NCBI GenBank assembly: GCA_020356065.1
Contig: CP070632.1
Span: 58,665 to 122,664, forward strand
Length of the DNA stretch: 64,000 nucleotides
DNA from: Nitrospiraceae bacterium
Lineage (GTDB): Bacteria; Nitrospirota; Thermodesulfovibrionia; UBA6902
Direction: 5' to 3'
Part shown: piece after piece, positions 3,246 to 59,667 of the stretch
How positions within the stretch are numbered: the first letter of the stretch is position 1
Layout: each line of letters opens with the position of its first letter
Program-made: the position numbers and the translations under genes
The notes under the pieces: model-generated
The model's database searches: none
Told to the model about the DNA's origin: nothing
The model's input: the letters and a program-made list of their open reading frames with translations, nothing else

Positions 3246-3361
3246 CCGTTACTAGTTATCAGGTATCTGTAACTTTTTAATTTAATAATTACCTGATGTA
3301 TGGGGAATTAAATATATAATCTTTATTTTCTTTTAACAAATAACGATTAACTTTTAAAAAA

Positions 3362-5896: not shown

Positions 5897-7102
5897 ATGC
5901 CCAAAATCATAGCTGACTTGCATATTCACTCCGAATTCAGCAGGGCTACGAGCAGGGAGATGAATGTCGAGGTGCTTGCATTATGGGCCAAAAAGAAGGG
6001 CATTAATTTAATAGGCACCGGTGACTTTACCCATCCCGGTCATTTCTCGAACTTGAAAAAATCTCTTGAGCCATCCTGCAGCGGTCTCTACTCAATACCA
6101 TCGGAACCTTCGATTTATTTCATGCTGTCAGCCGAAGTCAGCAGCATTTACAAACAGAAGGGAAAGGTGAGAAAGATCCACAACCTCATTTTTGCTCCGG
6201 ATTTTGACATTGCGGAAAAAATAAACGTTGAGCTTGACAGGCGTGGAAATATTTCATCTGATGGGAGGCCCATACTGGGTATATCTGCCAGGGAACTTCT
6301 GGAAATTGTACTGGATATCTCAGAGGACTGTTTATTTGTTCCTGCCCATGCATGGACTCCCTGGTTTTCGATTTTTGGCAGCAGGTCCGGTTTTGATTCC
6401 ATAGAAGAGTGTTTTGAAGAGTATTCGGAGTACATATATGCAATTGAAACGGGCCTGTCCTCAGACCCTGAAATGAACTGGAGGCTGTCCATGCTCGATA
6501 ATATAACCCTTCTCTCAAATTCCGATGCCCATTCACCTGCAAAAATAGGAAGGGAGGCAAATGTATTTCAATGCGATATGGACTATTTCGAGATTATGGA
6601 TGTGATCAGGAAGAAAGACAGAGAGAGATTTCTTTACACGATCGAGTTCTTTCCGGAGGAGGGAAAGTATCATTTCGATGGACACAGAACATGCGGCTTA
6701 TCATTTGCACCTGAACAGACGATTGAGAATGACTTTCTCTGCCCGGCATGTAAAAAGCCGTTGACAGTTGGTGTGATGAGCAGGGTTAATGAACTTGCTG
6801 ATAGACGTCAGGGATTTGTTCCTGATAATGCCGTGCAAACAAAACACCTGGTCCCATTGCAGGAAATTATTTCCGAGGCATACAGCGTAGGTGTTAACTC
6901 AAAAAAAGTGAAGAATGAATATGAGAAGATTGTTTCAACCAGCACGGAATTTGAAGTGATGTTGGACCTGACGGTGGATGAGCTACACAAGATAACAGAC
7001 AGGAAGATAGCTGAGGGGATATTAAAAGTTCGAGCGGGCGATATGTCCATTATACCGGGATATGATGGCGTTTTTGGGAAAGTATCTATTTTTTCAGATT
7101 AA
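5897..7102 (+). CDS. PHP-domain phosphoesterase with C-terminal zinc ribbon; endonuclease Q (EndoQ)-like, COG1379 family
   Basis: 'DLHIHSEFSRA', 'GTGDFTHP', 'PAHAWTPWFS', 'LSNSDAHSPAKIGRE' and 'GKYHFDGHRTC...CPACKK' match the PHP plus Zn-ribbon architecture of archaeal and Bacillus EndoQ. Recalled from memory, not searched. Confidence 0.5.
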   Translation: MPKIIADLHIHSEFSRATSREMNVEVLALWAKKKGINLIGTGDFTHPGHFSNLKKSLEPSCSGLYSIPSEPSIYFMLSAEVSSIYKQKGKVRKIHNLIFAPDFDIAEKINVELDRRGNISSDGRPILGISARELLEIVLDISEDCLFVPAHAWTPWFSIFGSRSGFDSIEECFEEYSEYIYAIETGLSSDPEMNWRLSMLDNITLLSNSDAHSPAKIGREANVFQCDMDYFEIMDVIRKKDRERFLYTIEFFPEEGKYHFDGHRTCGLSFAPEQTIENDFLCPACKKPLTVGVMSRVNELADRRQGFVPDNAVQTKHLVPLQEIISEAYSVGVNSKKVKNEYEKIVSTSTEFEVMLDLTVDELHKITDRKIAEGILKVRAGDMSIIPGYDGVFGKVSIFSD

Positions 7103-15021: not shown

Positions 15022-16572
15022 TCATTTTGTCTTTTTCCATAGGACCCACTTAATTATTTCCTGAACCATCGCCTCTATGGTGGCTTCCTCTGGCATTACT
15101 GAAACTTTCAGTCCTGCCTTTTCAACCGCCTTTGCAGTAACCGGACCGATGACCGCTATCATAACATCTTTCAGCATCCTGGCTGAGTCTTCACCTGTCA
15201 TCTCAAGGAAATTATTAAAAGTGGCGGCACTGGTAAACGTGGCTATGGAGATCTTGCCTTCTTTTAAAAACCGCTGTAATCTCTTGCCGTGCACCTCAGG
15301 CTTGATGGTCCTGTATACCGGCGGAACATCGATCATACCACCAAGCTCACGGACCTTTTCAGGGAAGACTTCACGTGCAACTTCCGCCCGTGGTAAGAGT
15401 ATTTTAAGTCCGTCAAGTTTCTTATCTGTTGTCTGTTGACTGCCGTGTGCTGTCTTGACAAATGCCTCAATCAGGCCTTCCGCATTAAACTCTTTCGGGA
15501 CCAGATCGACCTTGATCCCGAATGCTCTGATAGCTGAAGCGGTTTTGGATCCGACGGCGCAGATGTTAATACCTTTTAAATCTCTTATATCTCTGTCCTT
15601 CTCAAACAGTCTCTGGAAGAAGAATTTCACTGCATTGCCACTGGTAAGAGTTATCCAGTCATAAGATTCAATCCTGTCGATGGATTTGTCAAGTTCTGAC
15701 CAGTCTTCAGCAGGGACTATCTTAATGGTGGAAAATTCGATGACCTCGGCCCCCATCTCCTCCAGTGGTTCGAAGCCATGGGTATGCTCCCGTGTAACCA
15801 GTACTCTCTGTCCGAACAATGGTTTTTTCTCGATCCAACTTAATGTGTCTCTGAGTTTAACCACATCTCCTACAACCATCACGGCAGGAGGCTTAATGTC
15901 CCGTTCTTTAACAATCTCTGATATATTGCTCAGTTTGCCAACAAGGGTTGTCTGGTCAGCCCGTGTTCCCCAGCGCACAACAGCAACAGGGGTTTCTGCA
16001 CTTCTGCCGTTTTCGATCAGCTTTTTGCATACTTCAGCAATGTTTTTTACCGTCATGAGAAATACGATCGTACCCACCCCGGTTGCAAGACGTGTCCAGT
16101 CTATGAAGTTGTCTTTCTTGGTAACATCTTCATATCCCGGAACAACCGCAAGCGAGGAAGAGTATTTTCTGTGGGTAAGGGGAATTCCCGCATACGCCGG
16201 TGCTGCGATAGATGAACTGATGCCGGGAACAATCTCAAAATCTATTCCTTCACTGGCAAGAACCTCTGCTTCTTCACCGCCCCGTCCAAATACAAAGGGG
16301 TCTCCTCCTTTTAATCGGCAGATCATCTTTCCCTGGTTTGCTTTTTCGACAAGAGTCTGGTTTATCTGGTCCTGAGTCATTGCATGCTGGCCGCCCCGCT
16401 TTCCTGCATAGATAAACTCTGCTTCATGGTCTATATAGTTTAATATCTGTGCATTGAGATGAAAATCATAGACCACAACTTCAGCAGTTTTAAGACACTT
16501 TAAGCCCTTTACCGTGAGGAGACCTATATCTCCAGGTCCTGCGCCTACTATATAAACTTTACCTTTTGACAT
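15022..16572 (-). CDS. cobA-hemD: Uroporphyrinogen-III C-methyltransferase / uroporphyrinogen-III synthase fusion (CobA/HemD)
   Basis: N-terminal 'VYIVGAGPGDIGLLT' SUMT domain plus a C-terminal HemD-like domain. 516 aa. Confidence 0.85.
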   Translation of the reverse strand: MSKGKVYIVGAGPGDIGLLTVKGLKCLKTAEVVVYDFHLNAQILNYIDHEAEFIYAGKRGGQHAMTQDQINQTLVEKANQGKMICRLKGGDPFVFGRGGEEAEVLASEGIDFEIVPGISSSIAAPAYAGIPLTHRKYSSSLAVVPGYEDVTKKDNFIDWTRLATGVGTIVFLMTVKNIAEVCKKLIENGRSAETPVAVVRWGTRADQTTLVGKLSNISEIVKERDIKPPAVMVVGDVVKLRDTLSWIEKKPLFGQRVLVTREHTHGFEPLEEMGAEVIEFSTIKIVPAEDWSELDKSIDRIESYDWITLTSGNAVKFFFQRLFEKDRDIRDLKGINICAVGSKTASAIRAFGIKVDLVPKEFNAEGLIEAFVKTAHGSQQTTDKKLDGLKILLPRAEVAREVFPEKVRELGGMIDVPPVYRTIKPEVHGKRLQRFLKEGKISIATFTSAATFNNFLEMTGEDSARMLKDVMIAVIGPVTAKAVEKAGLKVSVMPEEATIEAMVQEIIKWVLWKKTK

Positions 16573-26541: not shown

Positions 26542-27579
26542 ATGATCATAACAAACAAGAGAAGATCCAGACGGTTTGATCGTCCCTTTTTTGTCCAGTT
26601 CAGACAATTGAAGGGACTGGCTTCGTATTCACTGGGTATGACATCTAATATTTCAAGTGATGGATTTTGCTTTCAGTTTCAAAATATTGAGCTTAAGCAG
26701 GGTGATAACCTGGAATTCAAATTTAACAACCAGCAGACTAAACAGTCTGTTCATTTTTTTGGAGATGTGATGTGGACTCAGAAAAATGATATGAAATACA
26801 TCGCAGGTATAAGATTCTGCATGTCTGACAAGAAAAACAGAAAGAAAATGCTGAAAATTATATCTGACTTTTTTACAATTCCTTTGGATCAGTTGACTTA
26901 CAGGCATGATAAAAAATCGTCAGAGCATGTGAGAAGTAAAAAAGCAGTATCAGAAACGGATCAGGTGCACGGAAATTTATCAAGTTATTGGAAGCATATC
27001 ATAAAAAAAGGAATTAAAATATGCATGCATTTGGTTATATTAGCTGTGATCACCACTGCATTCGTGTTAGTTATGCCAGTATTGACCGAACAGTATGAGC
27101 ACCTGACGAAACCCCCTGTTGAATCGCATGTTCAAACTGTTGTTTATGATAATTCTGTTAATGATACGTCAAAATCAATGTCTGTACATCAGATAAGGGA
27201 TGCAATCAGAAGTGAATATGACGAATCAGAGAAATTATTTTTTGCAGATAAACATAGCGACTTGGAAGTAAAGAAAGGAAGCAGCAATGTAACTGCAATA
27301 GAGAAAGGAATGGAACTGACACATACTCAGCCGACACAAAGCGAATCAGAAAATTTTAAATTTTATGTTCAGGTCACATCTCCATACGACCCTGAGCATG
27401 CTTATGAAATGCTTTTAAAAATAAAAAATTATTATCCGGATGCGTTCCTGTTTAAGATAAATGACTATTATAAAATAAGAATTCCAGGAATAACGAGTGA
27501 AAAACAGGGGACAGAGGTCAATAAAGATCTGGAGGATAAGCTGAACGTCAAGTCTGTCTTAGTATACAGACTGAAATGA
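26542..27579 (+). CDS. PilZ domain - single transmembrane helix - SPOR domain protein
   Basis: PilZ motifs 'RRSRRFDR' (RxxxR) and 'NISSDG' ((D/N)xSxxG). Transmembrane helix 'ICMHLVILAVITTAFVLVMPVL'. C-terminal SPOR-like 'FYVQVTSPYDPEHAYEMLLKIK...YKIRIPG'. Confidence 0.55.
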   Translation: MIITNKRRSRRFDRPFFVQFRQLKGLASYSLGMTSNISSDGFCFQFQNIELKQGDNLEFKFNNQQTKQSVHFFGDVMWTQKNDMKYIAGIRFCMSDKKNRKKMLKIISDFFTIPLDQLTYRHDKKSSEHVRSKKAVSETDQVHGNLSSYWKHIIKKGIKICMHLVILAVITTAFVLVMPVLTEQYEHLTKPPVESHVQTVVYDNSVNDTSKSMSVHQIRDAIRSEYDESEKLFFADKHSDLEVKKGSSNVTAIEKGMELTHTQPTQSESENFKFYVQVTSPYDPEHAYEMLLKIKNYYPDAFLFKINDYYKIRIPGITSEKQGTEVNKDLEDKLNVKSVLVYRLK

Positions 27580-27892: not shown

Positions 27893-30800
27893 TTATTTTT
27901 TTATCACTTTTACCATGATATCACCAAAGCCCGGCATACCGGTGAAGGGAGATAAGTTATTTGAGTCAAAAAGTTCATTAATATTAAAAGTGTACCCTGA
28001 AGTATTATTTGCAAATCCCATTCCAGACGCTGTTTGACCTCCTGGCCCGAAAGCTGTTTTAATAACCCCAGGCATTATTTCCTCTGTCAGGTATACCTTA
28101 CCATTCACTCTTTGTCCTAAAGGATTCTCAAGAGTAACTATTTCTCCGGTCTTGATTCTGAGATGATTGCCATCGGCTGTGTTAATAGATAAAACTGGTA
28201 TTGATACAGTTCCGGCATGAAATAGTTTTTCACCGTACTGAGGAATCGCATCTTTATCAGCCGGATTATGAATGGCAGGGTTAACATTCCGGAAATCGTC
28301 ATTTAATGGTTTCATACATTCAGTTTCAGTCTCGGCAAGGGAGGGGCATATACCAGTCATAGTCATTGCATAATGCGCCCTTCCGCTGATTAGTTGAAAG
28401 GGATACTCTTTCTTTTTTTCTCTGTAATGAAAATTTGAAGTAATCCACTTGCATTCTGACCAGTAAAAAGTAGAAGGGAAATCAGTGCCGAAAGTGCTAT
28501 TTATTTTTTCAAGATAACTGAATTTAAATTCAAATCTGCCCGACCCAGTGCGGGGGTACGTTCCTGAAGGGGATCCGTCTGACTTTTTATAACGGTAATA
28601 GCTTGCAGGCCAGATTGCCACGCCGTGGTTGTTTCTTAACCACTCAACAGTGAGGGGTACTCCCTGCCTGATCTTTATTTTGTCCAAGTTAGCTGTAGGA
28701 TCATCCGGCACTCCCATAATCAAGCTTCCTTCCGGCAGATCAGGATAGGGAAGGGGGTGTCCGAAATTATAGAATCCCGGAGCTTCACTTAATATTTCAT
28801 TTATGAAATCTTCTTCGTCTGTGTACTTCATAAAATCCTCAGCCTTTATATCAGGATCACCGTTTTTTATAAAGGCTTCAGAAAGGCAGGTCATGATTTC
28901 AAATGGAGTTTTAGAATTGTGTAATGGTTTAATTGTCTGGTCTCTTAAAGCAATTTCCGGGCTCATGGTATACACATCACTCACACCCATTCTCTCCAGA
29001 TATCCGGCCTCCGGTAGTATTAGATCAGCGTATTTACCGGTAACATTGATATGTGTGTCAATAAATACCATCAGCTCTAGGTGATAATCTCCGTTTTTTT
29101 GTTTTGCAGTAACGGAGTCGATCCAGTCATTGGTGTTGCCGGCAGTGATAACAGGATTTCCAGCCCTTGCTATAAAGGCCTTTACAGGGTAATGGTGACC
29201 TTTGAACGGGCCGTGTTTGAGTGTTATTCCATTTCGTATTTTATCCGGCATATCAGCAAGAACCCCTTTCCAGGCCGCTGGATAGTCGCCTAAGAGGTCT
29301 TTATGAAGTGCTGAGAGTTTGCCATTATTCTCACGACCTTTAATAATCCGGCTGACAATAACATTTAAAAAATTTTTGCCTGAAGTACGCTCCCCCTTTC
29401 TGGCCTTCTGGGAATCTATGAATACAAGCCCTCCCGGCACATCCATATTGCCAGTAATCAGGCAAATCGCTGTCATGAGAATGGACGTTACATCACCATT
29501 TGTGTGGTGAGCAGTACCATGCATACCAATTTCAATCGCAGAAGGTTTTGTGATTCCAAAGAGATGGGAAATATTCCTTATATCAGCTTGGGAAATTCCA
29601 GTCCTTTGCTCAGCCCACTCAGGCGTGAAAAAATTCAAACCATTAGATTCATCTATTCTAGTTGTATATGACAGAAATGCTTTTTTAAACTCGGTCCAAC
29701 CGGTTGTATATTTATCAATAAAATCATGATCTATATATTTTTTATTATCATTATTTGGATCGTCATCAGTAATAATGCAATAAAGGATTGATGCAAGCAG
29801 CGCCGCATCTGCCCCTGGATTTATTGGTAACCAAATGTCAGCATGTGCAGAAGAATTGGTGTAAGATGGATCAATAACAATATACATGCATCCGTTTTCT
29901 TCTTTAGCTGCCGGGATACCTCCAGACATGTAATTGAACCTGGTTGCCACTAATGGATTAGCGCCTATATTAAGAAGCAATTTTATGTCATGCTTTTTTT
30001 TTAGATCCAGATTCCCGTTATCATTTCTTACCAAAACCGGCCTCTGAATGTCAGGTAAAGGTCTTTCATCACCTATCATGATGCTCTGTCCCCATTTTCG
30101 GTTAGGATCACAGATGCTGCCATGATTGTAAGTATTCGGTGTACCGAAAGCATGAAATAAACGGTAATAGGCTTCCCTGTCAGTGACATCCCCGCAATCG
30201 AGAAATACTGATTCAGGTCCGTAATTCTTTTTAATATCAATTAATTTGCCTGCGATATGGTCAGCTGCTTCTTTCCATGTGATTTCTTTCCATTTATCGT
30301 CACCCCTATTACCGGTCCTTATAAGAGGAGATTTTATTCTATTCTGTGAGTATGTTAGCTCAAGCCCTGCAGCTCCTTTTGCACAAAGTGCTCCGTTATT
30401 AACTAAAGTATGGGGATTGCCATGTATCTTTGTAGCTACACCGTTCTCAACAGTTACTGTTATCCCGCATTCGGAAGGACACATTGCGTCTGAAGTAAAT
30501 ATCTGTGATGAAGAGTGTTCAGAAGGTGATAGGGGAAGTCGTGATTGAGTGCGAAGGGTAGACGGAATTTTTGCTTTTATATTCCTGGATAAGAGATTAA
30601 TATCAATGGGGTCATTTATTGTATAAAAAATTGAAGGATTTGTGGGGTGCTCTGAAAATCGAACATACTGATTTTTCTGTGTTAAAGCATGAGATATCTC
30701 ACTTGTTTTATTATTCAGGTCACCGAATATCATTGCTTTTCCCATACAACTATCAACACATACGGGTGATAAATTGTGTACTATCCTGTTGTCATAACAG

Positions 30801-31168
30801 AAATCACACTTTTCCACCTGAGCCGATTCCTCATTTATCTCAATCGCATCATATGGACATTTGTCATAACAGATCTGACATCCGGTACATTTTTGCTTAT
30901 CAAAAACAACAACACCATCCTGATTTTTAACGAGTGCCTGTTCCTCGCAGGCATCTATGCAGGGTGCACTATCACAGTGATTACATAAGCGCGGAAGGAA
31001 AATTTTTTTCAGATGTGGGTAATTACCTGACCGGACTGTTTCAATTCTGCATCTGGAAGTACCGAAGGGGATATTGAATTCAGATTTGCAGACCATCTGG
31101 CAGGCCTGACATCCAATGCATCTGTTAAGATTGATTAACATTCCCAATCTTCGCTGTTTATGGGCCAT
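27893..31168 (-). CDS. Fused 4x[4Fe-4S] ferredoxin (PsrB/NrfC-like) and molybdopterin (Mo-bisPGD) oxidoreductase catalytic subunit; no Tat motif
   Basis: Four N-terminal CxxCxxCxxxCP clusters, e.g. 'CIGCQACQMVCK' and 'CTGCQICYDKCP'. Then a MopB N-terminal FeS 'CPSECGITV...CAKG' and a long molybdopterin domain. 1091 aa. Confidence 0.75.
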   Translation of the reverse strand: MAHKQRRLGMLINLNRCIGCQACQMVCKSEFNIPFGTSRCRIETVRSGNYPHLKKIFLPRLCNHCDSAPCIDACEEQALVKNQDGVVVFDKQKCTGCQICYDKCPYDAIEINEESAQVEKCDFCYDNRIVHNLSPVCVDSCMGKAMIFGDLNNKTSEISHALTQKNQYVRFSEHPTNPSIFYTINDPIDINLLSRNIKAKIPSTLRTQSRLPLSPSEHSSSQIFTSDAMCPSECGITVTVENGVATKIHGNPHTLVNNGALCAKGAAGLELTYSQNRIKSPLIRTGNRGDDKWKEITWKEAADHIAGKLIDIKKNYGPESVFLDCGDVTDREAYYRLFHAFGTPNTYNHGSICDPNRKWGQSIMIGDERPLPDIQRPVLVRNDNGNLDLKKKHDIKLLLNIGANPLVATRFNYMSGGIPAAKEENGCMYIVIDPSYTNSSAHADIWLPINPGADAALLASILYCIITDDDPNNDNKKYIDHDFIDKYTTGWTEFKKAFLSYTTRIDESNGLNFFTPEWAEQRTGISQADIRNISHLFGITKPSAIEIGMHGTAHHTNGDVTSILMTAICLITGNMDVPGGLVFIDSQKARKGERTSGKNFLNVIVSRIIKGRENNGKLSALHKDLLGDYPAAWKGVLADMPDKIRNGITLKHGPFKGHHYPVKAFIARAGNPVITAGNTNDWIDSVTAKQKNGDYHLELMVFIDTHINVTGKYADLILPEAGYLERMGVSDVYTMSPEIALRDQTIKPLHNSKTPFEIMTCLSEAFIKNGDPDIKAEDFMKYTDEEDFINEILSEAPGFYNFGHPLPYPDLPEGSLIMGVPDDPTANLDKIKIRQGVPLTVEWLRNNHGVAIWPASYYRYKKSDGSPSGTYPRTGSGRFEFKFSYLEKINSTFGTDFPSTFYWSECKWITSNFHYREKKKEYPFQLISGRAHYAMTMTGICPSLAETETECMKPLNDDFRNVNPAIHNPADKDAIPQYGEKLFHAGTVSIPVLSINTADGNHLRIKTGEIVTLENPLGQRVNGKVYLTEEIMPGVIKTAFGPGGQTASGMGFANNTSGYTFNINELFDSNNLSPFTGMPGFGDIMVKVIKK

Positions 31169-47740: not shown

Positions 47741-49363
47741 TTGCTTAACCTGACATTAAAAAATATTGCTCACAAAGAAGACTTTTCTGCACAGAAAGAT
47801 GTTTCATTGAGAGATGTAACGGAATTAATGAATAAAAATGGAAAAGGTGTTGTTGTCATCCTTGATGGTAAGAAAATTGCGGGCATTCTTACCGAAAGGG
47901 ACATAGTGAAATGCCTTCACAAGGGAATAGATCTGGATACTAATGTTACGGGTTTTGCCGATAAAAAACTTGTTGCGACAAGAGGAGACAGAACAGTCGG
48001 ATATGCACTATCCCTTATGATAGAAAATAATATCAGACGTATAATCATTACAGACGGGTTCCTGGATGAATTTATTGGAGTTGTTACACAGCAGGATTTG
48101 CTGAAATATCTTGAAGAGGATTTTTACCGAGCAACCATCAAAGTCAAACATATCATAGACCGATTGGGGCATTTGTTTAACGTGGAACCTGATGACTCAC
48201 TGAAAAGTGTTCTGGATCAGATGGTTGGAAATCAAATAAGTGCGGTTGCCATCATCAGTGACGGTGTAGCTGAGGGAATTATCTCTGAGAAAGACATATT
48301 GCGATTGGCCTGTGAAAATATATCTCTTGACAGCAGAGTTCATGAACATATGTCAACCCCGGTGATCAATGTACATCTCGATAATGCGCTTGTCGACATT
48401 GTGACCATAATGAATGAATTGCAGATCAATAGAGTTATCGTACATGATGACAGCGGTATCGCTACCAATGTCATTACCACGAGAGATGTGTTGAAAAGCC
48501 TGGAGAGTGATTATAGTGCATTCCTTGAGCGCAAACTGAGGAGTGCCAAGGAAATTCTTAACCTTTTGCCGGAAATGATGGTAGAAATAGCTGAAACCGA
48601 GTCTGACCAGTTAATTGTGTGGGCAAACGATAAGGTGACGAGGAAGTTCGGCATGGACCTCCTTGACCAGCCGATAACTGAGTTTCTGCCCAGGGAGCAG
48701 TGGCATAAGATTTACACAACACTGAGAGACTCGGGGAAAGTAGAAAATATAAAAATGAAGAAGGGAGACAGCATTCTTGAGCTTTCCGGGTTTTATCTGA
48801 ACGTTGACAGTAATCAGAATAATGGAAAAATCCAGCTCATTATCAGAGATATCACGGATGATATACGATTGTCTACTTCTGACCCCTTGACAGGTTTATA
48901 TAACAGACGGTTTGTGAATGAATATTTAATAAAGGAGATCGCACGATTTAAAAGGTCGAACGAATCTTTTTCACTTGTGATGTGTGACATTGATAACTTC
49001 AAGGAGATAAATGACACGTACGGCCATTTGGCCGGTGATATAGTTCTTAAGTCATTGGCACAGCTTGTCACTCCTACGTTAAGGCAGCTTGATATCTTCG
49101 GCAGATACGGCGGCGATGAGTTTGTTTTAATTCTGCCCGGGACGGACAGTACATTTGCCTCAAATGTAATTGACAGACTGAGGATAAAAATAGAAAGCAT
49201 TCCAATAGCTCTTCCCGCAGGAGTAAAAAAATCTATAACTGCCAGTTTTGGTGTTGCAACATTTCCGATGGACGGAGAATCTTCAGATGATCTGCTGATC
49301 AAGGCCGATGAGCGATTATATAAGGCGAAGAGTCTTGGAAAAAACAAGGTTGTCTTTGTATGA
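47741..49363 (+). CDS. Diguanylate cyclase: 4xCBS - PAS - GGDEF, with I-site
   Basis: 'RYGGDEF' active site preceded by an RxxD I-site 'RQLD'. CBS pairs at the N-terminus. Confidence 0.85.
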   Translation: MLNLTLKNIAHKEDFSAQKDVSLRDVTELMNKNGKGVVVILDGKKIAGILTERDIVKCLHKGIDLDTNVTGFADKKLVATRGDRTVGYALSLMIENNIRRIIITDGFLDEFIGVVTQQDLLKYLEEDFYRATIKVKHIIDRLGHLFNVEPDDSLKSVLDQMVGNQISAVAIISDGVAEGIISEKDILRLACENISLDSRVHEHMSTPVINVHLDNALVDIVTIMNELQINRVIVHDDSGIATNVITTRDVLKSLESDYSAFLERKLRSAKEILNLLPEMMVEIAETESDQLIVWANDKVTRKFGMDLLDQPITEFLPREQWHKIYTTLRDSGKVENIKMKKGDSILELSGFYLNVDSNQNNGKIQLIIRDITDDIRLSTSDPLTGLYNRRFVNEYLIKEIARFKRSNESFSLVMCDIDNFKEINDTYGHLAGDIVLKSLAQLVTPTLRQLDIFGRYGGDEFVLILPGTDSTFASNVIDRLRIKIESIPIALPAGVKKSITASFGVATFPMDGESSDDLLIKADERLYKAKSLGKNKVVFV

Positions 49364-49528
49364 AGCAAATCGCACCCAATCGTACCTCTTGTTACATCAT
49401 ATCAAGCTGAGATTCTTCTGTGATAAGAGTCCATGTATATCACTGTGGTACCGGGCTAAACATATTCATCGAAAATGCCGATTTATAATCAGGAGTTAAA
49501 ATGAAATGCCATTAATACGGAAGGGACT

Positions 49529-51535
49529 ATGTTAGAAGAGGATAAAAGACAATTTGCCCGGTACCGAAAACAGTCATTATGTGATGTAAGAATAGGGTCA
49601 GAACTCCATAAAGGAAAAGTCGTTGATTACTCAAACGGTGTTGGGATACTCATAAAAAAAGTTCCGGAACTGGTAAAAGGTGCCATTGCTGAAATAGAAA
49701 TTTTAGACTATGAAATTAAATTCAGCGGCGAAGTGGTGTGGACAGAAGATTTTGGATATCAGCTCAGAGTCGGATTCAGAAGGCTCAACAACCTGAGGGG
49801 CAATCTTAAACATTACAGACTGATTGACATCCTTTTAGGTCTCAGCAAGAGCAGAAAAACGGGAATACTTGAGATAATCGTAGGTTCGACAGTAAAAAAG
49901 ATATATATTGACAATGGACTGAAGATTTTTGCTGTATCTACAAATACAAATGACCGCCTCGGAGAGTATCTTTTAACACAGGGTAAAATTACCCTTGAAG
50001 AATATAATCAGGCCTCTTACCTCGTTGAAAAAAAGGGACAGCGACTGGGTCAGGTTCTTATCGATCTTGGTTATTTAAAACCGAGTGATCTTGCCCCGTC
50101 AGTCCAACATCAGGTTGAAGAGATTATTATGGGCCTCTTTAATATAGATGAAGGCATATTTGAATTTAAAGAAGTCCCGCTCCCAACGGATGAACCAATA
50201 AAACTCCAAGTCAGCACGCCAAATCTCATATACAAGGGAATCAAGAGAATTAACAGCTTTCCCATGATAGATAAGATGTGTCCACCATTAGATACAGTAT
50301 TTAATCTGGCCAAGGACCCGCTCCCGCTGTTTCAGTCGCTCGACATTTTGGATGCCGATAAAAAAGTCCTATCGTATGTGAACGGAATCCATCCACTAAA
50401 AGGGATATTAACCCTTTCTCATACAAGTAATTTTGAGACACTTAAATCTGTTATCGCCCTTATGACCATAGGACTCATTACTATCAAGGGAGAAAATGAC
50501 ACTCCTGTTAAACTTCCCCTTGAAGTGATCTTTGGCGAACCTGACAAAACTCAACCGGTGGAACCAGATGAAGAGACACAGGAAGAGGTAACGACTGATA
50601 TTGGTGCAGGAGCTGCTGAAATGACAGACACTCAAACGAATATTGTTGAGAAACAGGAGAACGTTAAAGAACCCACAAAAGAGGAAGAGTCGGCAGTACC
50701 AGCATTGCCTGAAGCTCCCGCGTCTGAAATAACTGATGAAGATTCACATGACGATGAATCGGCTGATGTGAATGCAGAAGCCACTGAATGGGCAGTTGAA
50801 TATACGAATATGGTCGAGAATCAGGAGAACATGAAAGCGTCTGATGAGGAGGAATTGGCGATATCAACACCGCCTGAAGTTCCTGTTTCTGAAATAAATG
50901 AAGATACACATTCAGAAGAGATGGCTTCATTACGCGCAGAGAGTGCTGAAGAGACAATCGAACATGTGAAAACAAGTGAGAGCATCAGTAAAATGAATGT
51001 GATATCAGAGTCACACCTGTCTTTTATAGATGAGCATGATGAGATACAGGCTGAGAATATTACTGAACAGACAGATGAAAAACAATCCATTACATACACA
51101 GCAGGTTATGTCAATGAAACATCCGGAGTTCCTGAACCTGCTGCCATGGAGTCAGAAATGGCGGCTGCAGCAGGAGAGGAAGCATACGTACAGATGAATG
51201 ATATGACGTCTGAAAACACATCAACTGACGTGCTGCCGAACACTGTTCTGCAAAATGACGAAAGTGCTGACACTGCAGCAAAACCGAAGTCCAGAAAAAT
51301 ACTCATCATCTCAATTGTTATGATAATCATTCTTGTTGGAGCCATTGTTCCGATCATTTATGAATATATTACAATGCCATTATCTCCACCTGCCGTGACA
51401 ACTATAAAAAAATCTGAGTCTTTATCACCTGTGAACAATGAGGCATCAGAAAAAGTGAATGCAGGAATGCCGCAAGACAAATCATCATTCCCTGTCTTTC
51501 GGGAGGATGCAATAAAAAAGTTTCTCAACGAGTAA
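49529..51535 (+). CDS. PilZ - DUF4388 - acidic repeat linker - transmembrane helix protein (putative c-di-GMP receptor)
   Basis: 'RQFARYR' (RxxxR) plus 'DYSNGVG'. DUF4388-like 'LIDILLGLSKSRKTGILEI'. E/S/T-rich repeat. Transmembrane helix 'ILIISIVMIIILVGAIVPII'. Confidence 0.6.
   Translation: MLEEDKRQFARYRKQSLCDVRIGSELHKGKVVDYSNGVGILIKKVPELVKGAIAEIEILDYEIKFSGEVVWTEDFGYQLRVGFRRLNNLRGNLKHYRLIDILLGLSKSRKTGILEIIVGSTVKKIYIDNGLKIFAVSTNTNDRLGEYLLTQGKITLEEYNQASYLVEKKGQRLGQVLIDLGYLKPSDLAPSVQHQVEEIIMGLFNIDEGIFEFKEVPLPTDEPIKLQVSTPNLIYKGIKRINSFPMIDKMCPPLDTVFNLAKDPLPLFQSLDILDADKKVLSYVNGIHPLKGILTLSHTSNFETLKSVIALMTIGLITIKGENDTPVKLPLEVIFGEPDKTQPVEPDEETQEEVTTDIGAGAAEMTDTQTNIVEKQENVKEPTKEEESAVPALPEAPASEITDEDSHDDESADVNAEATEWAVEYTNMVENQENMKASDEEELAISTPPEVPVSEINEDTHSEEMASLRAESAEETIEHVKTSESISKMNVISESHLSFIDEHDEIQAENITEQTDEKQSITYTAGYVNETSGVPEPAAMESEMAAAAGEEAYVQMNDMTSENTSTDVLPNTVLQNDESADTAAKPKSRKILIISIVMIIILVGAIVPIIYEYITMPLSPPAVTTIKKSESLSPVNNEASEKVNAGMPQDKSSFPVFREDAIKKFLNE
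50641..50960 (+). repeat. Degenerate tandem duplication of about 162 bp (54 aa) inside the acidic linker of the PilZ-DUF4388 gene
   Basis: 'IVEKQENVKEP...PEAPASEITDEDSHD' against 'MVENQENMKAS...PEVPVSEINEDTHSE'. Confidence 0.6.
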
Positions 51536-54891: not shown

Positions 54892-55386
54892 ATGGCTGAA
54901 TATTCATTTGATGTAGTAAGCAGGGTCGATCTTCAGGAGGTTTTAAATGCGATCCAGCAGGCAATGAAGGAAATCAAACAGAGATTTGACTTCAGAGGCA
55001 GTAAGAGCAACCTGGAACTGGATCAGGGTAACAGCCTGATAACGATAACGTCTGATGATGAGTATAAACTGAAAAGTGTAATCGATATCCTTGAGAATAA
55101 GCTCATCAAAAGAAAGGTGCCGGTCAAGGCAATCAGCTACGGTAAAGTAGAGGATGCCGCCGGAAGCACAGTGAGACAGGTTGCTACTCTTCAGCAGGGC
55201 ATCCCGACAGAGAAAAGCAAGGAAATTGTCAAAATAGTGAAACATTCCAAACTGAAAGTACAGTCCGAGATCCAGAAAGACCAGCTCCGGATCAGGGCCA
55301 AGAAAAAAGACGATCTGCAGGCAGTTATTGCATTGTTAAAGGAAAAAGATCTGGGTATTCATATAGAGTTTGTGAATTACAGGTGA
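54892..55386 (+). CDS. yajQ: YajQ-family (UPF0234) nucleotide-binding protein
   Basis: 164 aa with the YajQ fold pattern. Family members bind c-di-GMP in xanthomonads. Confidence 0.75.
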   Translation: MAEYSFDVVSRVDLQEVLNAIQQAMKEIKQRFDFRGSKSNLELDQGNSLITITSDDEYKLKSVIDILENKLIKRKVPVKAISYGKVEDAAGSTVRQVATLQQGIPTEKSKEIVKIVKHSKLKVQSEIQKDQLRIRAKKKDDLQAVIALLKEKDLGIHIEFVNYR

Positions 55387-55479
55387 GATAGGGAATGGAT
55401 AATAGGTGACAGGTCATGGGTCATTGTCTTTTTTTATAACCGATAACCCATAATCCGTATTTTTTGTATAATACCTTTT

Positions 55480-57597
55480 ATGAGTGTATGGAATGATATA
55501 AGGCATGATTTTAAAACTGTTTTTACCATGGATCCTGCTGCCAGGAGCAAGGTTGAGGTCATTATCTCCTATTCAGGATTTCATGCTATAGTTTTTCACA
55601 GGTTAAATCATTACCTCTGGAATGCCAGGATACCCATACTACCCCGTTTTTTTTCGCAGGTAGCAAAGATATTTACCGGTATAGAGATACATCCTGCTGC
55701 AAAGATTGGCCGTGGGTTTTTCATAGACCACGGGATGGGTGTGGTGATAGGTGAGACTACGGAGATAGGAGAAAACTGTCTGCTGTATCAGGGAGTGACT
55801 CTTGGGGGTACGGGCAAGGAAAAGGGAAAGAGACATCCTACCTTAAAGAATAATATCGTTGTTGGCACCGGAGCAAAAGTGCTCGGGGCGATTACCATTG
55901 GAGACAACGTTAAAATAGGGGCCAATTCGGTTGTGCTTCATGATGTTCCCAAAGACTCCATTGTGGTAGGAGTGCCTGGAAGGGTCATTAAGAAAAAGGT
56001 TGTGAAGATGTTTGAAGATGGTCCGGTTGAGATGCTTGACCATGTTCATATTCCTGACCCGGTCGAAGATAAGTTTGAAAAGCTGAATAACATTATTCAT
56101 GAACTTGAAAGGAGAATCAGCACATTGGAAGGCAAGGGAGAGACCATAAAGGTTTATAACACAATGAGCGGAAAGAAAGAGGAGTTCATTCCCTTCACTC
56201 CGGGCAAGGTCAATATGTATGTGTGCGGGATTACCGCCTATGACGTATGTCACCTCGGACATGCAAGGAGCGCTATCGTGTTCGACATTATTAAGAGATA
56301 TCTGAGATACAGCGGTTATGATGTGACCCATGTGAGAAATATTACTGACATTGATGATAAGATTATAGCCCGATCAGCACAGGAGGGCATTTCCACTGAG
56401 GAAGTCGCCAAGAAATACACTGATGAATATTACAATGACATGGAGCTTCTGGGTGTCAGCAGGGCTGATATTGAGCCAAACGCTACTGACCATATCCATG
56501 AAATGGTAGAAACCATTAAAGGACTTATTGAAAAGGGATACGCATATCCGGTTGATGGTGACGTTTATTTTGAAGTGAGCAGGTTCTCCGGTTACGGGAA
56601 ACTGTCCGGGAAAAATATCGATGATCTCAAGGCAGGAGCCAGGGTCGATATTGATGAGAGAAAGAGGAGCCCTCTTGATTTTGCACTCTGGAAATCATCT
56701 AAGGAAGGTGAGCCATTCTGGGAAAGCCCATGGGGCAAGGGAAGGCCGGGCTGGCACATTGAGTGCACTGCCATGTCTTCAAAATATCTTGGGACAAGCT
56801 TTGATATACACGGCGGCGGAGCAGACCTCATATTCCCCCATCACGAAAATGAGCTTGCGCAGAGCGAAGCCTATTCGGACGAGCCTTTCGTGAAATACTG
56901 GATGCATAACGGTTTTATTACAGTGGACAAGGAAAAGATGTCTAAATCTCTCGGCAATTTCTTCACAATCAAGGAGATCTTAAGCAGATATGAACCCGAA
57001 GTAGTCAGATATTTTCTGCTCTCCGCTCATTATAGAAGTCCGATAGAGTTTTCTGACGTGCAGCTCAATGAAGCAGAGCTGTCGATTGACAGATACTATA
57101 CCACTGTCCTGCGGATCGATGATTTTCTGCAGTCAGAAAGTAATATTGACAGGATCACATCATCCGCTGAACTTGAAGACATTATGTCCGGATTCAGGCA
57201 CAAGTTCCATAATGCAATGAATGATGATTTTAATACTGCATCAGCACTGGGAATTATTTTTGAACTTATCAGAGAGGTAAACAGGTTTCTTGATTCCAAA
57301 CCTGCAGGTCAAAGGGCCAGGGACTTTGTTAAGCAGGCTTATGATCTGCTTGCTGAAATAGGCGGGGTGCTGAATATTTTTAATAAAACACCTGAAGAGT
57401 GGTACCGGGCGCTTATGAAAGTCAAGAAGATAGACATTACAGAAGATGATCTTCTCAAAAAAATTGATGCACGGCAGAATGCAAGGAAGAACAAGGACTG
57501 GTCTGCTGCGGATGATATAAGAAATGAACTCGCAGCAAAGAATATAATCCTTGAAGATAAAAAAGACGGGACTTCCTGGAAGATCAAGGTGGGTTAG
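55480..57597 (+). CDS. cysE-cysS: Fusion of serine O-acetyltransferase (CysE) with cysteinyl-tRNA synthetase (CysS) in one 705-aa ORF
   Basis: N-terminal 'IHPAAKIGRGFFIDHGMGVVIGETTEIG...LGGTGKEKGKRHP' matches the SAT hexapeptide domain. From about residue 225, 'MYVCGITAYDVCHLGHARS' (HIGH) and 'KMSKS' mark a class-I CysRS. Confidence 0.8.
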   Translation: MSVWNDIRHDFKTVFTMDPAARSKVEVIISYSGFHAIVFHRLNHYLWNARIPILPRFFSQVAKIFTGIEIHPAAKIGRGFFIDHGMGVVIGETTEIGENCLLYQGVTLGGTGKEKGKRHPTLKNNIVVGTGAKVLGAITIGDNVKIGANSVVLHDVPKDSIVVGVPGRVIKKKVVKMFEDGPVEMLDHVHIPDPVEDKFEKLNNIIHELERRISTLEGKGETIKVYNTMSGKKEEFIPFTPGKVNMYVCGITAYDVCHLGHARSAIVFDIIKRYLRYSGYDVTHVRNITDIDDKIIARSAQEGISTEEVAKKYTDEYYNDMELLGVSRADIEPNATDHIHEMVETIKGLIEKGYAYPVDGDVYFEVSRFSGYGKLSGKNIDDLKAGARVDIDERKRSPLDFALWKSSKEGEPFWESPWGKGRPGWHIECTAMSSKYLGTSFDIHGGGADLIFPHHENELAQSEAYSDEPFVKYWMHNGFITVDKEKMSKSLGNFFTIKEILSRYEPEVVRYFLLSAHYRSPIEFSDVQLNEAELSIDRYYTTVLRIDDFLQSESNIDRITSSAELEDIMSGFRHKFHNAMNDDFNTASALGIIFELIREVNRFLDSKPAGQRARDFVKQAYDLLAEIGGVLNIFNKTPEEWYRALMKVKKIDITEDDLLKKIDARQNARKNKDWSAADDIRNELAAKNIILEDKKDGTSWKIKVG

Positions 57598-57602
57598 AGA
57601 TG

Positions 57603-58670
57603 TTATTCTGTAATCCTCTTTCCATTGAGGAAGAAATGCACGCCCGTATCAGCCAACGAAAGAGTTATTTCTGCTCCTCTGCGTATCTGAAAACCTGAAG
57701 CAGCTTTTGCAGTAATTCTCTTTCCGTTAACGCTGACATAAATAAGGGTCTCAGGTCCGAGATGTTCGGTCAGTTCGACAGTTCCTGTAATCGGTCCAGC
57801 GCCGGGAGACAGGGACTCTGGCCTGATACCCATTATAAGATCCTTGCCTGTATACTGCATCAGCTCAGTTCTCGATGATACGTCAATCATCAGAGGTCCT
57901 GATTCAAAAAATATTTTGCCATCTCTATGAAGAGTTGTGCCGGTGAAAAGATTAATCTGTGGAGTCCCAATGAAGGTTGCTACAAACAGGTTGGAGGGTT
58001 TATGGTAGACCTCATCAGGAGTGCCTGTCTGTTGAATCTCTCCCTGATCAAAAAGAATGATTTTTTCCCCGAGTGTCATTGCCTCCACCTGGTCGTGAGT
58101 AACATATACAGTTGTTACCTTTAACTTCTGATGAAGATTTGCGAGCTCTACCCTCATGGTACTGCGCAGTTTAGCATCAAGGTTTGAAAGGGGCTCGTCA
58201 AAGAGAAAAAGCTTTGGGTTCCTTACAATAGCTCGCCCTATCGCAACGCGTTGTCTCTGTCCACCAGAAAGTTCTTTAGGCTTTCTGTCAAGGAAGTTAT
58301 AAAGCTCAAGCAGTGATGCTGTTTCTTTTACTTTAAGGTCTATATCATTCTTTGGCATGTTCCGCATTTTCAAGGCAAATGCCATATTATCAAATACGCT
58401 CATATGGGGGTACAATGCATAACTCTGAAATACCATGGCAATGTCCCTGTCTCTGGGAGTAAGATTGCTGACGTCTCTGTCGTTAATGAAAATACTGCCT
58501 TGATCAGACTGGTCCAGACCTGCTATCAGCCTGAGAACAGTGGTTTTTCCACATCCTGACGGCCCCAGGAGGACACAAAATTCTCCGTGATGTATTTCAA
58601 ATGATACATCTCTTATCACCTCAGTATTACCAAATGATTTTTTCAGATTGCTTACTTTGAGACTGCCCAT
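57603..58670 (-). CDS. MalK/UgpC-type ABC sugar-transport ATPase (orphan, with C-terminal TOBE-like domain)
   Basis: 'GPSGCGKTT', '[14 protein letters not shown]', '[11 protein letters not shown]'. No permease gene adjacent. Confidence 0.8.
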
Positions 58671-58980: not shown

Positions 58981-59667
58981 ATGACCGACATTCCCATGGA
59001 TGATAATGAAATAAACAAAGATTCCCTGGTCAACAATGCAGAAGAACTGAATAAATCTTATAGTGGAGAAACGGCAAATATGAGTGAAATGGATGAGCAA
59101 AGCAGATCAGACAGCAGCAGATCGTCTGATAATGATTTACATAACAACGTGTCTGCCAATGGATCTGAAACAGATAATAACGAAGCGTCAGGCGAAGAGT
59201 ATGCAGACCTGAATCAACCGTATGTACCTGACAGGCGGCAGGAAGAGCGAGATGGCCGTGACCGGAGGAGACATGAGCGTTCGGGGTTTACATATCCTGT
59301 GGGGCTGAAGATTTTTAAAAATCAGACATCAAATACATCTCACGATGGATATATTGAAGACATATCTATTAGCGGGGCAGGCGTAAAGTTTGAGGACAAA
59401 TATGGCAGAGTACAATTGGAAGGTCTTGCCGGTTCAAGTATCAAGATGATTGTCAGAATGCCGCGTGGTGATGATATAGCTTTATTGTCTGTTATAAAAT
59501 GGATCAGAAGAGATGTTACTGACAATGCGATTGTCAAAGTCGGCATTCAATTTCAGAGAATGGAAGACTGGCAGTTAAAGACAATAAAACAGCTGATCAG
59601 TCTTAAGAACAAGGACCACAATATGATGTGGAACCTTTTTGATAACTATGAAAAAAATGTCAGGTAG
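58981..59667 (+). CDS. PilZ domain protein with acidic, Ser-rich disordered N-terminus
   Basis: 'RDRRRHER' (RxxxR) plus 'DISISGAG' ((D/N)xSxxG). Confidence 0.6.
   Translation: MTDIPMDDNEINKDSLVNNAEELNKSYSGETANMSEMDEQSRSDSSRSSDNDLHNNVSANGSETDNNEASGEEYADLNQPYVPDRRQEERDGRDRRRHERSGFTYPVGLKIFKNQTSNTSHDGYIEDISISGAGVKFEDKYGRVQLEGLAGSSIKMIVRMPRGDDIALLSVIKWIRRDVTDNAIVKVGIQFQRMEDWQLKTIKQLISLKNKDHNMMWNLFDNYEKNVR

Follow-up and report, generated by a model that had tools for sequence, protein, structure and literature searches.

The 64,000-nucleotide stretch of DNA analysed here (the window; positions 58,665 to 122,664 of contig CP070632.1 from the Nitrospiraceae bacterium assembly GCA_020356065.1) contains a fused cysE-cysS gene, in which one uninterrupted frame encodes a serine acetyltransferase (SAT; CysE) followed by a cysteinyl-tRNA synthetase (CysRS; CysS). 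The gene occupies positions 55480..57597 of the + strand and comprises 705 codons and a stop. It begins with ATG and is the sole open reading frame (ORF) listed at this position, and neither the G+C content nor its skew shows a break across it. The ORF listing, Pfam and NCBIfam agree on this assignment: a single polypeptide passes two NCBIfam equivalog cut-offs, those of TIGR01172 (cysE) and TIGR00435 (cysS), with no intervening stop. A preliminary sequence-only reading of the window had proposed a single 705-residue ORF and a genuine in-frame fusion of SAT to a full class-I CysRS, and both proposals are borne out.

All parts of the gene lie on the + strand. Residues 1–66 (55480..55677), delimited by alignment with the Haemophilus influenzae SAT structure 1SSQ and by the helices of an AlphaFold2 (AF2) monomer model, form what is left of the N-terminal domain of SAT, four helices that include D18. 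The left-handed β-helix (hexapeptide) catalytic domain follows (residues 67–172; 55678..55995; Pfam, NCBIfam and 1SSQ) and carries E69, D83-H84, and R118-H119. Residues 173–222 (55996..56145) are now an internal connector, which comparison with stand-alone CysE tails and the alignments discussed below identify as the native C-terminal tail of a truncated CysE. The connector ends in a glycine-rich hinge, E217-G-K-G-E-T-I223 (56128..56148; GAAGGCAAGGGAGAGACCATA), that was delineated by comparison of junction DNA. The remainder, residues 223–705 (56146..57594), corresponds to a complete CysRS with its Rossmann catalytic domain (Pfam, NCBIfam, and PDB alignments), and the polypeptide terminates in ...WKIKVG.

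The SAT half matches TIGR01172 over all 162 model positions (residues 7–168; 242.8 bits against a cut-off of 210.65) and Pfam Hexapep in two stretches (40.2 bits against 27), and 22 SAT structures head its PDB matches. Besides Hexapep, Pfam detects within the first 170 residues only the last 33 positions of SATase_N (PF06426; profile positions 71–103 of 105), which at 19.3 bits remain below the cut-off of 21. PRK11132, the model for the long, E. coli-type CysE, scores 160.7 against a cut-off of 397. Among NCBIfam hexapeptide transferase models, EpsC also exceeds its cut-off (239.6 against 150), and those remaining fall well under their own. The N-terminal 222 residues align without gaps to 1SSQ and related entries at a constant offset (residue n to residue n+70), such that the window protein starts at approximately residue 72 of H. 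influenzae SAT. In the AF2 monomer the N-terminus of this half contains helices at residues 3–17, 24–30, 32–48, and 54–66. A truncated CysE isoform, of the type found in S. aureus and M. tuberculosis, has been described (Oldham et al. 2025, PMC13040420). Judged by the alignment, the SAT half is an N-terminally truncated CysE isoform of this kind, in which about 70–76 N-terminal residues, equivalent to four helices, are missing. The earlier description of a complete SAT domain resembling E. coli CysE is thus right about CysE identity and wrong about a complete SATase_N. Similarly, a check for the domain architecture SATase_N+Hexapep+tRNA-synt_1e recovers Hexapep and tRNA-synt_1e (residues 238–532, 463.8 bits), together with a SATase_N that is only partial and below cut-off; because the isoform is truncated, "SATase_N+Hexapep" overstates the SAT half.

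The catalytic dyad of CysE consists of His158 and Asp92 in E. coli numbering (PMC13040420). In the 1SSQ alignment, D18 corresponds to H. influenzae Asp88 (E. coli Asp92), D83-H84 to Asp153-His154 (Asp157-His158), R118-H119 to Arg188-His189 (Arg192-His193), and E69 to Asp139 (Asp143). All of these residues, E69 included, are either invariant or conserved to at least 90% in two alignments, A1 and A3, which contain 14 and 48 sequences and reach down to 68% identity. The same catalytic residues are kept in P0121, the most divergent fused representative (63% identity), and the GGTGK loop is invariant or nearly so across fused sequences down to that identity. IEIHP, the context of E69, is general across the fused clade. 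By these comparisons the SAT half is CysE proper, and its serine O-acetyltransferase site looks competent. The sequence-only reading had allowed that this half might prove to be a generic hexapeptide acyltransferase lacking the active-site His and Asp of CysE. H84 and D18 are both present, and the equivalog score together with the active-site residues rules out that assignment.

The C-terminal half matches TIGR00435 at 582.9 bits (cut-off 340) across residues 223–701, which cover model positions 1–464 of 466. Its 483 residues are collinear from end to end with the CysRS structures 8QHP (490.7 bits) and E. coli 1LI5 (480.2 bits). The class-I signatures HLGH (residues 258–261; 56251-56262) and KMSKS (residues 486–490; 56935-56949) are invariant in A1 and A3, as predicted for a full class-I CysRS with HIGH and KMSKS motifs. 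Also invariant in both alignments are the zinc-site motifs containing C249 (MYVCGIT), C429 (GWHIEC), and H454 and E458 (FPHHENE); from motif identity, we take these residues to be the counterparts of C28, C209, H234, and E238 of E. coli CysRS. Two anticodon-binding domains, DALR_2 (57202-57381; 61.2 bits) and CysS_C (57466-57579; 28.3 bits), exceed their Pfam cut-offs. The model for the related enzyme MshC (TIGR03447) scores 298.3 bits and does not pass its cut-off of 485.1. The C-terminal half therefore reads as a complete class-I CysRS that, by sequence, should be catalytically competent.

Among 5.8 billion proteins, a word-indexed search revealed more than 120 fused clusters at 90% identity that are 68–89% identical to the query, nearly all 689–721 amino acids in length, and derived from NCBI, JGI, ENA, and Logan assemblies. 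Named members are labelled only "cysteine--tRNA ligase" and belong to Nitrospirae/Nitrospirota bacteria. At the DNA level, we checked L001 and L002 (GTDB genomes, among the matches listed), L081 and L082 (contigs of metagenome-assembled genomes), and 48 metagenome contigs retrieved by a junction-specific pattern. The fusion is uninterrupted in at least 43 independent contigs, namely the two GTDB genomes and at least 41 metagenome or MAG contigs; L131 likewise carries an unbroken fusion frame. Checked contigs without an intact fusion comprise those cut by contig ends, two with frameshifts in the CysRS part, and two unfused human-gut loci. Alignments of fused relatives show no gap at the junction. 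The claim that no stop or frameshift separates the domains thus stands for the window, and the open frame recurs in independent contigs, which removes the need for resequencing.

The architecture is restricted to a narrow group. When 1.84 billion representatives of 50%-identity clusters were searched exhaustively with HMMER, the sole representative that matched residues 1–704 was P0121 (711 amino acids); all other matches down to 425 bits span only residues ~223–701, that is, the CysRS. A second fused lineage above ~425 bits would have appeared in this list. Other unusually long CysRS proteins in the list lack Hexapep, and their extensions are either mTERF or unannotated. With one 50%-identity representative among 1.84 billion, the notion of a widespread architecture was rejected. 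Neighbor-joining trees, one per half, group all 31 fused sequences in a single clade, with no unfused sequence among them. The closest unfused CysRS is that of Flexistipes sinusarabici (P0122, 53% identity), and the closest unfused CysE proteins, among the matches listed, are from Omnitrophota (L012 and L075). One fused member carries the label Thermodesulfovibrionia. The simplest reading of these data would be a single fusion origin within Nitrospirota, in a Thermodesulfovibrionia-type clade.

One apparent unfused relative, P0273 (484 amino acids, in the same 90% cluster as the fused P0098), was rejected; its DNA is fused, and the short protein reflects truncated annotation. The public CysRS call in GCA_030646035.1 (L131 3356-5455, JAUSMY010000023.1) is also 484 amino acids in length and begins at an internal ATG, leaving 650 bp of intact, in-frame SAT-coding sequence unannotated. 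This conceals the fusion in that genome, where cysE would be taken to be missing.

Unfused versions of the same gene pair are common. At about 70 loci among the matches listed, cysE lies directly 5′ of cysS on the same strand with a true stop between them; these pairs occur in Bacillota, Omnitrophota, Chloroflexota, and Actinomycetota. Between the cysE stop and the point where the CysRS match begins there are typically 1–50 nt, or else the two overlap by 3–16 nt. In many unfused pairs both genes share one frame and are separated by a single stop, with a gap of 1 nt in L008 and L020. A cysES operon with a T-box is known in Firmicutes (PMC2940859), and gltX-cysE-cysS of B. subtilis are co-transcribed according to Gagnon et al. 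(1994 JBC 269:7473), as cited in PMC13040420. The statement that CysE normally pairs with CysK rather than CysS is accordingly true of protein complexes but not at the level of genes, where cysES pairing is widespread. Since the adjacency of cysE and cysS was already widespread, the fusion constitutes a Rosetta-stone event rather than a new pairing.

The connector between the two enzymes bears the mark of this ancestry. Residues 181–199 contain the motif GPVEMLDHVHIPDPVEDKF, and the helix that follows places F199, L202, I206, L209, I213, and L216 at heptad a/d positions. The AF2 monomer contains a single tail helix (residues 194–216) and then a loop that enters the first CysRS strand at residue 224, both modelled with low confidence. 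P192, D193, P194, F199, E210, R212, E217, and G218 are invariant and the region is gapless in A1 and A3. About 75 stand-alone CysE proteins among the matches listed display LD(H/Q)xHxPDPV and an amphipathic helix of L/I..LE repeats, followed by the stop codon. Because stand-alone CysE proteins end with the same motif and helix, the segment 173–222 is, on this comparison, the ancestral CysE tail. A novel interdomain linker was rejected; the ~50-residue linker noted previously exists as a segment, but it originates from the native CysE tail. Only 6 of ~78 stand-alone tails among the matches listed end in Ile. The LDxxHxPDPV motif is strongly conserved in the tails of stand-alone truncated-isoform CysE proteins (L003-L080), and its function seems to be uncharacterised.

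Junction DNA indicates how the two genes may have been joined. In the more divergent fused lineages, a Shine-Dalgarno-like site and a start codon are still readable before the CysRS: AAAGGAGGCAGG-ATG in L001, AAGGGAGGGACG-ATG in L123, AAAGGAGAAGGT-GTG in L127, a TTG start in L121, and ATG starts in L118, L119, and L122. The window and its crown group read GAA GGC AAG GGA GAG, the codons of the hinge E-G-K-G-E, with ACC ATA (Thr-Ile) in place of the start. Seventeen of 30 fused genes, the window included, have no start-capable codon at position 222 or 223. Moreover, when the intergenic Shine-Dalgarno regions of unfused pairs are translated in frame, they give similar peptides ("EGKM" in L072, "GGHM" in L010). 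On the strength of these junctions, we conclude that the hinge E-G-K-G-E is what remains, in translated form, of the Shine-Dalgarno sequence that once served cysS. The third codon positions of G-K-G-E vary freely in the crown group; therefore, the peptide rather than an RNA signal is now conserved in the hinge, and conservation of the relic Shine-Dalgarno as RNA in the crown group of the window is not supported. Because cysE-stop-cysS pairs with short gaps and the same tail exist in unfused form, the fusion would have arisen through loss of the cysE stop codon in a known cysES pair.

A cluster of tRNA genes, tRNA-Thr(TGT)/Tyr/(Gly)/Thr(GGT), lies directly 3′ of cysS both in fused L002 (8732-9178) and in unfused L022 from Chloroflexota (2949-3351); neither cluster contains tRNA-Cys. 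The shared cluster looks like an ancestral neighbourhood and is consistent with fusion in place. Two divergent fused loci have remodelled junctions: in L127 (~1837-2040) a 12-residue insertion, HDTLNRKLRGQSVNKGEG, precedes the GTG, and in L002 (~6330-6400) KGKIASQTSM replaces LEGKG..M. Both remain within the fused clade in the neighbor-joining trees.

Selection was estimated by Nei-Gojobori counts in 30 full-length fused genes, using 12 pairs with synonymous divergence (dS) of 0.05–1.5. The ratio of nonsynonymous to synonymous differences (pN/pS) is 0.109 for SAT, 0.112 for CysRS, and 0.160 for the whole tail. Within the tail, the values are 0.045 for the motif GPVEMLDHVHxPDPVEEKF and 0.307 for the helix. 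Purifying selection acts on both enzymes as well as on the connector, and the two halves are equally constrained. The PDPV motif of the tail is the most constrained segment of the fused protein.

The start of the fused gene has a distinctive upstream region. An extended −10 box (TGTATAAT; 55465..55472 on the + strand), read from the sequence and conserved in fused loci, ends 7 nt 5′ of the ATG. Across L081-L127, the clade version of this box (TTGTATAATAC) is seen within 70 nt upstream of the start. A perfect TATAAT precedes the fused gene at 30 of 41 loci and one with a single mismatch at 2 more (32 of 41). The distance from the end of the box to the start codon is 5–10 nt, mostly exactly 7, and sequence farther upstream is unrelated between loci. 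A consensus promoter scan did not report the −10 box, since there is no −35 box. Because the box ends about 7 nt before the ATG and no Shine-Dalgarno sequence precedes the start of the fused gene, these features suggest that a leaderless or near-leaderless mRNA is common to the clade. Rfam detects a T-box (RF00230) before cysE in the Bacillota loci L003, L005, and L048 and none in the Paenibacillus locus L015. Neither a T-box nor any other Rfam element was found in the window or upstream of the fused genes in L001, L002, L081, and L082, and the scanned Omnitrophota and Chloroflexota loci lack a T-box.

Considered together, these observations make it very probable that the gene encodes a bifunctional truncated-isoform SAT-CysRS that originated once by stop loss and most likely performs housekeeping duty in both steps. 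According to this reading, loss of the ancestral cysE stop would have allowed translation to continue through the short spacer into cysS, and the former cysS Shine-Dalgarno would have become the codons of the hinge. In the lineage of the window, the old cysS start would then have changed to Thr-Ile, such that CysRS would be made only as part of the fusion. Trimerisation of the β-helix domain is a general property of hexapeptide acyltransferases. Truncated CysE is predicted to form trimers rather than hexamers, and in multimer models of S. aureus CysE the elongated C-terminal helix forms a coil (PMC13040420). The β-helix domains of the fusion would likewise assemble into a trimer that creates the SAT active sites, and the three heptad helices of the tails probably pack into a short stalk on the three-fold axis. 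One CysRS module per chain would hang from this stalk by the glycine-rich hinge. Such an arrangement would fix the two enzymes at a 1:1 stoichiometry and would co-express the committed step of cysteine synthesis with the translational use of cysteine.

The fusion also has predicted consequences for the regulation of SAT. The C-terminal Ile of CysE is needed for the complex with CysK (PMC13040420), in which the terminal carboxylate/Ile of CysE occupies the active site of CysK. Whether the SAT part retains the tail that binds CysK had been raised as a question; the tail instead runs on into CysRS and offers no free terminal Ile. Because the SAT C-terminus continues into CysRS and is not free, no canonical cysteine synthase complex is predicted to form, which would leave feedback by cysteine at the active site to control SAT. 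Direct channelling of substrate is not expected, since a separate sulfhydrylase must act on O-acetylserine.

Several observations count against the reading of a bifunctional housekeeping enzyme with a single origin. The Asp of the E. coli and H. influenzae enzymes is E69 in the fusion, a conservative change. Confidence in the AF2 monomer, given as pLDDT (the local distance difference test as predicted), is below 50 over the β-helix and ~56–62 in the tail helix. Of 30 fused genes, 13 still have ATG, GTG, or TTG at codon 222 or 223, and some relatives that retain the Shine-Dalgarno-like site and start may also make free CysRS. The neighbor-joining trees are unbootstrapped and midpoint-rooted, and the ratios of nonsynonymous to synonymous change derive from a small sample of 12 sequence pairs. 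The GTDB contig scan covers the matches listed, with at least two fused Nitrospirota genomes among them. The census for a second cysS or cysE and for cysK or cysM covers the 64-kb window.

Alternative explanations can be weighed against this evidence. Neighbouring cysE and cysS genes might have been merged in assembly or sequencing by a missed stop or an indel, an error that a single base could mimic given that the ancestral layout is one stop codon away (1-nt gap in the same frame in L008 and L020). The fusion is not an assembly error, however, because it recurs across many independent assemblies: the open frame repeats in more than 120 clusters from several assembly sources and in the contigs checked at the DNA level, the junction is gapless and under purifying selection, and the old start codon has been replaced in the window (ACC ATA). 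We regard such an artefact as practically excluded. Another possibility is that one ORF yields two proteins, with initiation at the relic Shine-Dalgarno producing free CysRS and the fusion representing a minor or non-functional by-product. The 13 genes that keep a start codon speak for this idea, as do purine runs resembling a Shine-Dalgarno sequence 4–7 nt 5′ of it (L001, L123, L127, L118, L119, and L122), the choice of the internal ATG by the NCBI pipeline in GCA_030646035.1, and a leaderless mRNA, which could make use of an internal Shine-Dalgarno efficient. Nevertheless, codons 222–223 in the window and 16 other genes are ACN-ATH, ATA-ATA, AGG-CTG, or CGG-CTA, none of which is a start, and the variable third positions of G-K-G-E indicate that the Shine-Dalgarno is not kept as RNA. 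The next ATG (M229) sits inside the first CysRS strands without a Shine-Dalgarno, and none of the 31 monophyletic fused members has regained a stop codon. Internal initiation as the main source of CysRS appears quite unlikely.

The remaining alternatives concern the function of the two modules. The SAT could be dead or repurposed, for instance as a sensor of cysteine or acetyl-CoA or as a scaffold for CysRS trimerisation, with O-acetylserine supplied by another enzyme. The replacement of the Asp of structurally characterised enzymes by E69, a subfamily assignment that is not unique in view of the EpsC score, and the absence of a nearby cysK in the window, L081, and L082 would fit such a loss. 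Yet the module exceeds the CysE equivalog cut-off, keeps D18, D83, H84, R118, H119, and the GGTGK loop (near-)invariant down to 63% identity, evolves under a pN/pS that matches that of CysRS, and descends directly from the cysE of a cysES pair; we consider an inactive SAT very unlikely. MshC is a paralogue of CysRS involved in the synthesis of low-molecular-weight thiols, and the CysRS module could be a non-translational ligase of this type that coexists with a canonical cysS elsewhere in the genome. This is highly improbable, inasmuch as the partial match to the MshC model lies far under its cut-off and the cysS score far over its own, the anticodon-binding DALR_2 and CysS_C are kept, the module aligns end to end with the structures of E. 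coli and other CysRS, and it is strongly constrained (pN/pS 0.112). A more elaborate proposal holds that the fusion acts as a sensor loop at the protein level that replaces the T-box, with CysRS occupancy signalling through the stalk to SAT or in the reverse direction. If so, occupancy by cysteine, Cys-AMP, or uncharged tRNA-Cys would tune O-acetylserine to translational demand, and a normally monomeric synthetase would act as an obligate trimer. We view the sensor loop as unlikely.

The closest known counterpart of the fused gene is the cysES operon of Bacillota (gltX-cysE-cysS), which has the same genes in the same order on one strand with minimal spacing, encodes a truncated CysE with the PDPV-helix tail, and shares the logic of co-expressing cysteine synthesis with tRNA-Cys charging. 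The operon produces two polypeptides separated by a stop and is controlled at the RNA level, often by a cysteine-specific T-box leader, whereas the fusion produces one polypeptide, has no T-box or leader, and in the lineage of the window has no internal cysS start left. By analogy, the fusion may do at the protein level what the T-box cysES operon does at the RNA level. Like the truncated-isoform SATs, the fusion has a shortened N-terminus, a β-helix with the His/Asp residues, and an elongated, helical C-terminal tail (PMC13040420). In those enzymes, however, the tail has a free end; in the fusion it continues into a 483-residue CysRS and is unavailable as an anchor for CysK. Full-length, E. 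coli-type CysE differs in possessing an eight-helix SATase_N of ~140 residues for a dimer of trimers, which the fusion lacks. Stand-alone CysRS proteins (1LI5/1U0B and 8QHP) are collinear with the C-terminal half over its full length (480–491 bits) and share its motifs and domains, but measure ~460–500 amino acids, to which the fusion adds an N-terminal enzyme module of 222 residues. E. coli CysRS on its own is a monomer; within the fusion, CysRS is predicted to be displayed in trimeric form.

Metazoan Glu-ProRS, double TyrRS, and fused GlyRS α-β are other examples of a synthetase covalently joined to a catalytic module (PMC11580382). These fusions join synthetases or their subunits, whereas here the partner is the biosynthetic enzyme for the cognate amino acid. 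The CysE-CysK complex also regulates cysteine synthesis through physical association of CysE, but it is non-covalent and involves O-acetylserine sulfhydrylase as partner. That complex depends on the free C-terminus of CysE (PMC13040420), which the fusion blocks. The AARS Online review lists EPRS, double TyrRS, fused GlyRS, and isoforms of AlaRS, PheRS, and PylRS, and the accessory domains it gives for CysRS are only GST and a small C-terminal extension (PMC11580382). The words "fusion," "fused," "cysS," and "Nitrospir" do not occur in the 2025 survey of CysE diversity (PMC13040420), and we found no description of a CysE-CysRS fusion in the open-access literature.

The enzymes and the pairing of their genes were thus known; what is new is that the two are covalently fused, that the fusion is fixed throughout a clade, and that the way it formed can be traced. 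We know of no described aminoacyl-tRNA synthetase that is fused to an enzyme making its own amino acid. The origin of the fusion is readable from living intermediates, namely the operon pair, the loss of the stop, the Shine-Dalgarno sequence frozen into a glycine-rich hinge, and the loss of the internal start. In evolutionary terms, this is a simple Rosetta-stone fusion, and any physiological advantage is so far conjecture. The protein provides a natural test of the role of the C-terminal helix of truncated CysE and of CysE regulation without the CysK complex, and it raises the question of whether a synthetase that is otherwise monomeric can cope with, or even gain from, being presented as a trimer. 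In practical terms, the plain annotation "cysteine--tRNA ligase" may lead metabolic reconstructions of Thermodesulfovibrionia-type Nitrospirota to count cysE as absent in error.

The fused gene resides in a neighbourhood without cysteine or sulfur genes in the window, L081, or L082, and neither cysK, cysM, nor a second cysE or cysS was found within the 64-kb window. The 5′ neighbours in the window encode YajQ, an FKBP isomerase, and a multihaem cytochrome, none of which is related to sulfur. On the 3′ side, a gene for a MalK-like ABC ATPase (57603-58670, − strand) is convergent with the fused gene and 5 nt from its end (57595-57605); no intrinsic terminator was predicted between the two. A relative of 89% identity shares the upstream synteny, and the neighbourhood of a 74%-identical relative is wholly different. 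yajQ (DUF520; 54892-55386 in the window) is also located directly 5′ of the fused gene in L084, L086, L098, L102, L107, and L109. In L098, L107, and L109 the yajQ stop is directly followed by the fused gene without a −10 box, which suggests co-transcription.

The remainder of the window is ordinary chromosome. Two of its ORFs merit mention. One (27893-31168, − strand) encodes a protein of 1091 amino acids in which a 4Fe-4S dicluster domain (Fer4_11, residues 54–149) precedes, on the N-terminal side, a complete catalytic unit of a molybdopterin oxidoreductase, such that iron-sulfur and catalytic subunits appear to be fused in one chain. The other (15022-16572, − strand) combines TP_methylase (uroporphyrinogen-III methyltransferase) and HEM4 (uroporphyrinogen-III synthase), presumably a CobA/HemD-type fusion as in anaerobes. 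Genes related to cyclic di-GMP are dense in the window (26542-27579, 47741-51535, and 58981-59667) and encode three PilZ proteins, one of which has PatA_N/DUF4388, and a CBS-PAS-GGDEF cyclase; two of these genes flank the neighbourhood of the fused gene.

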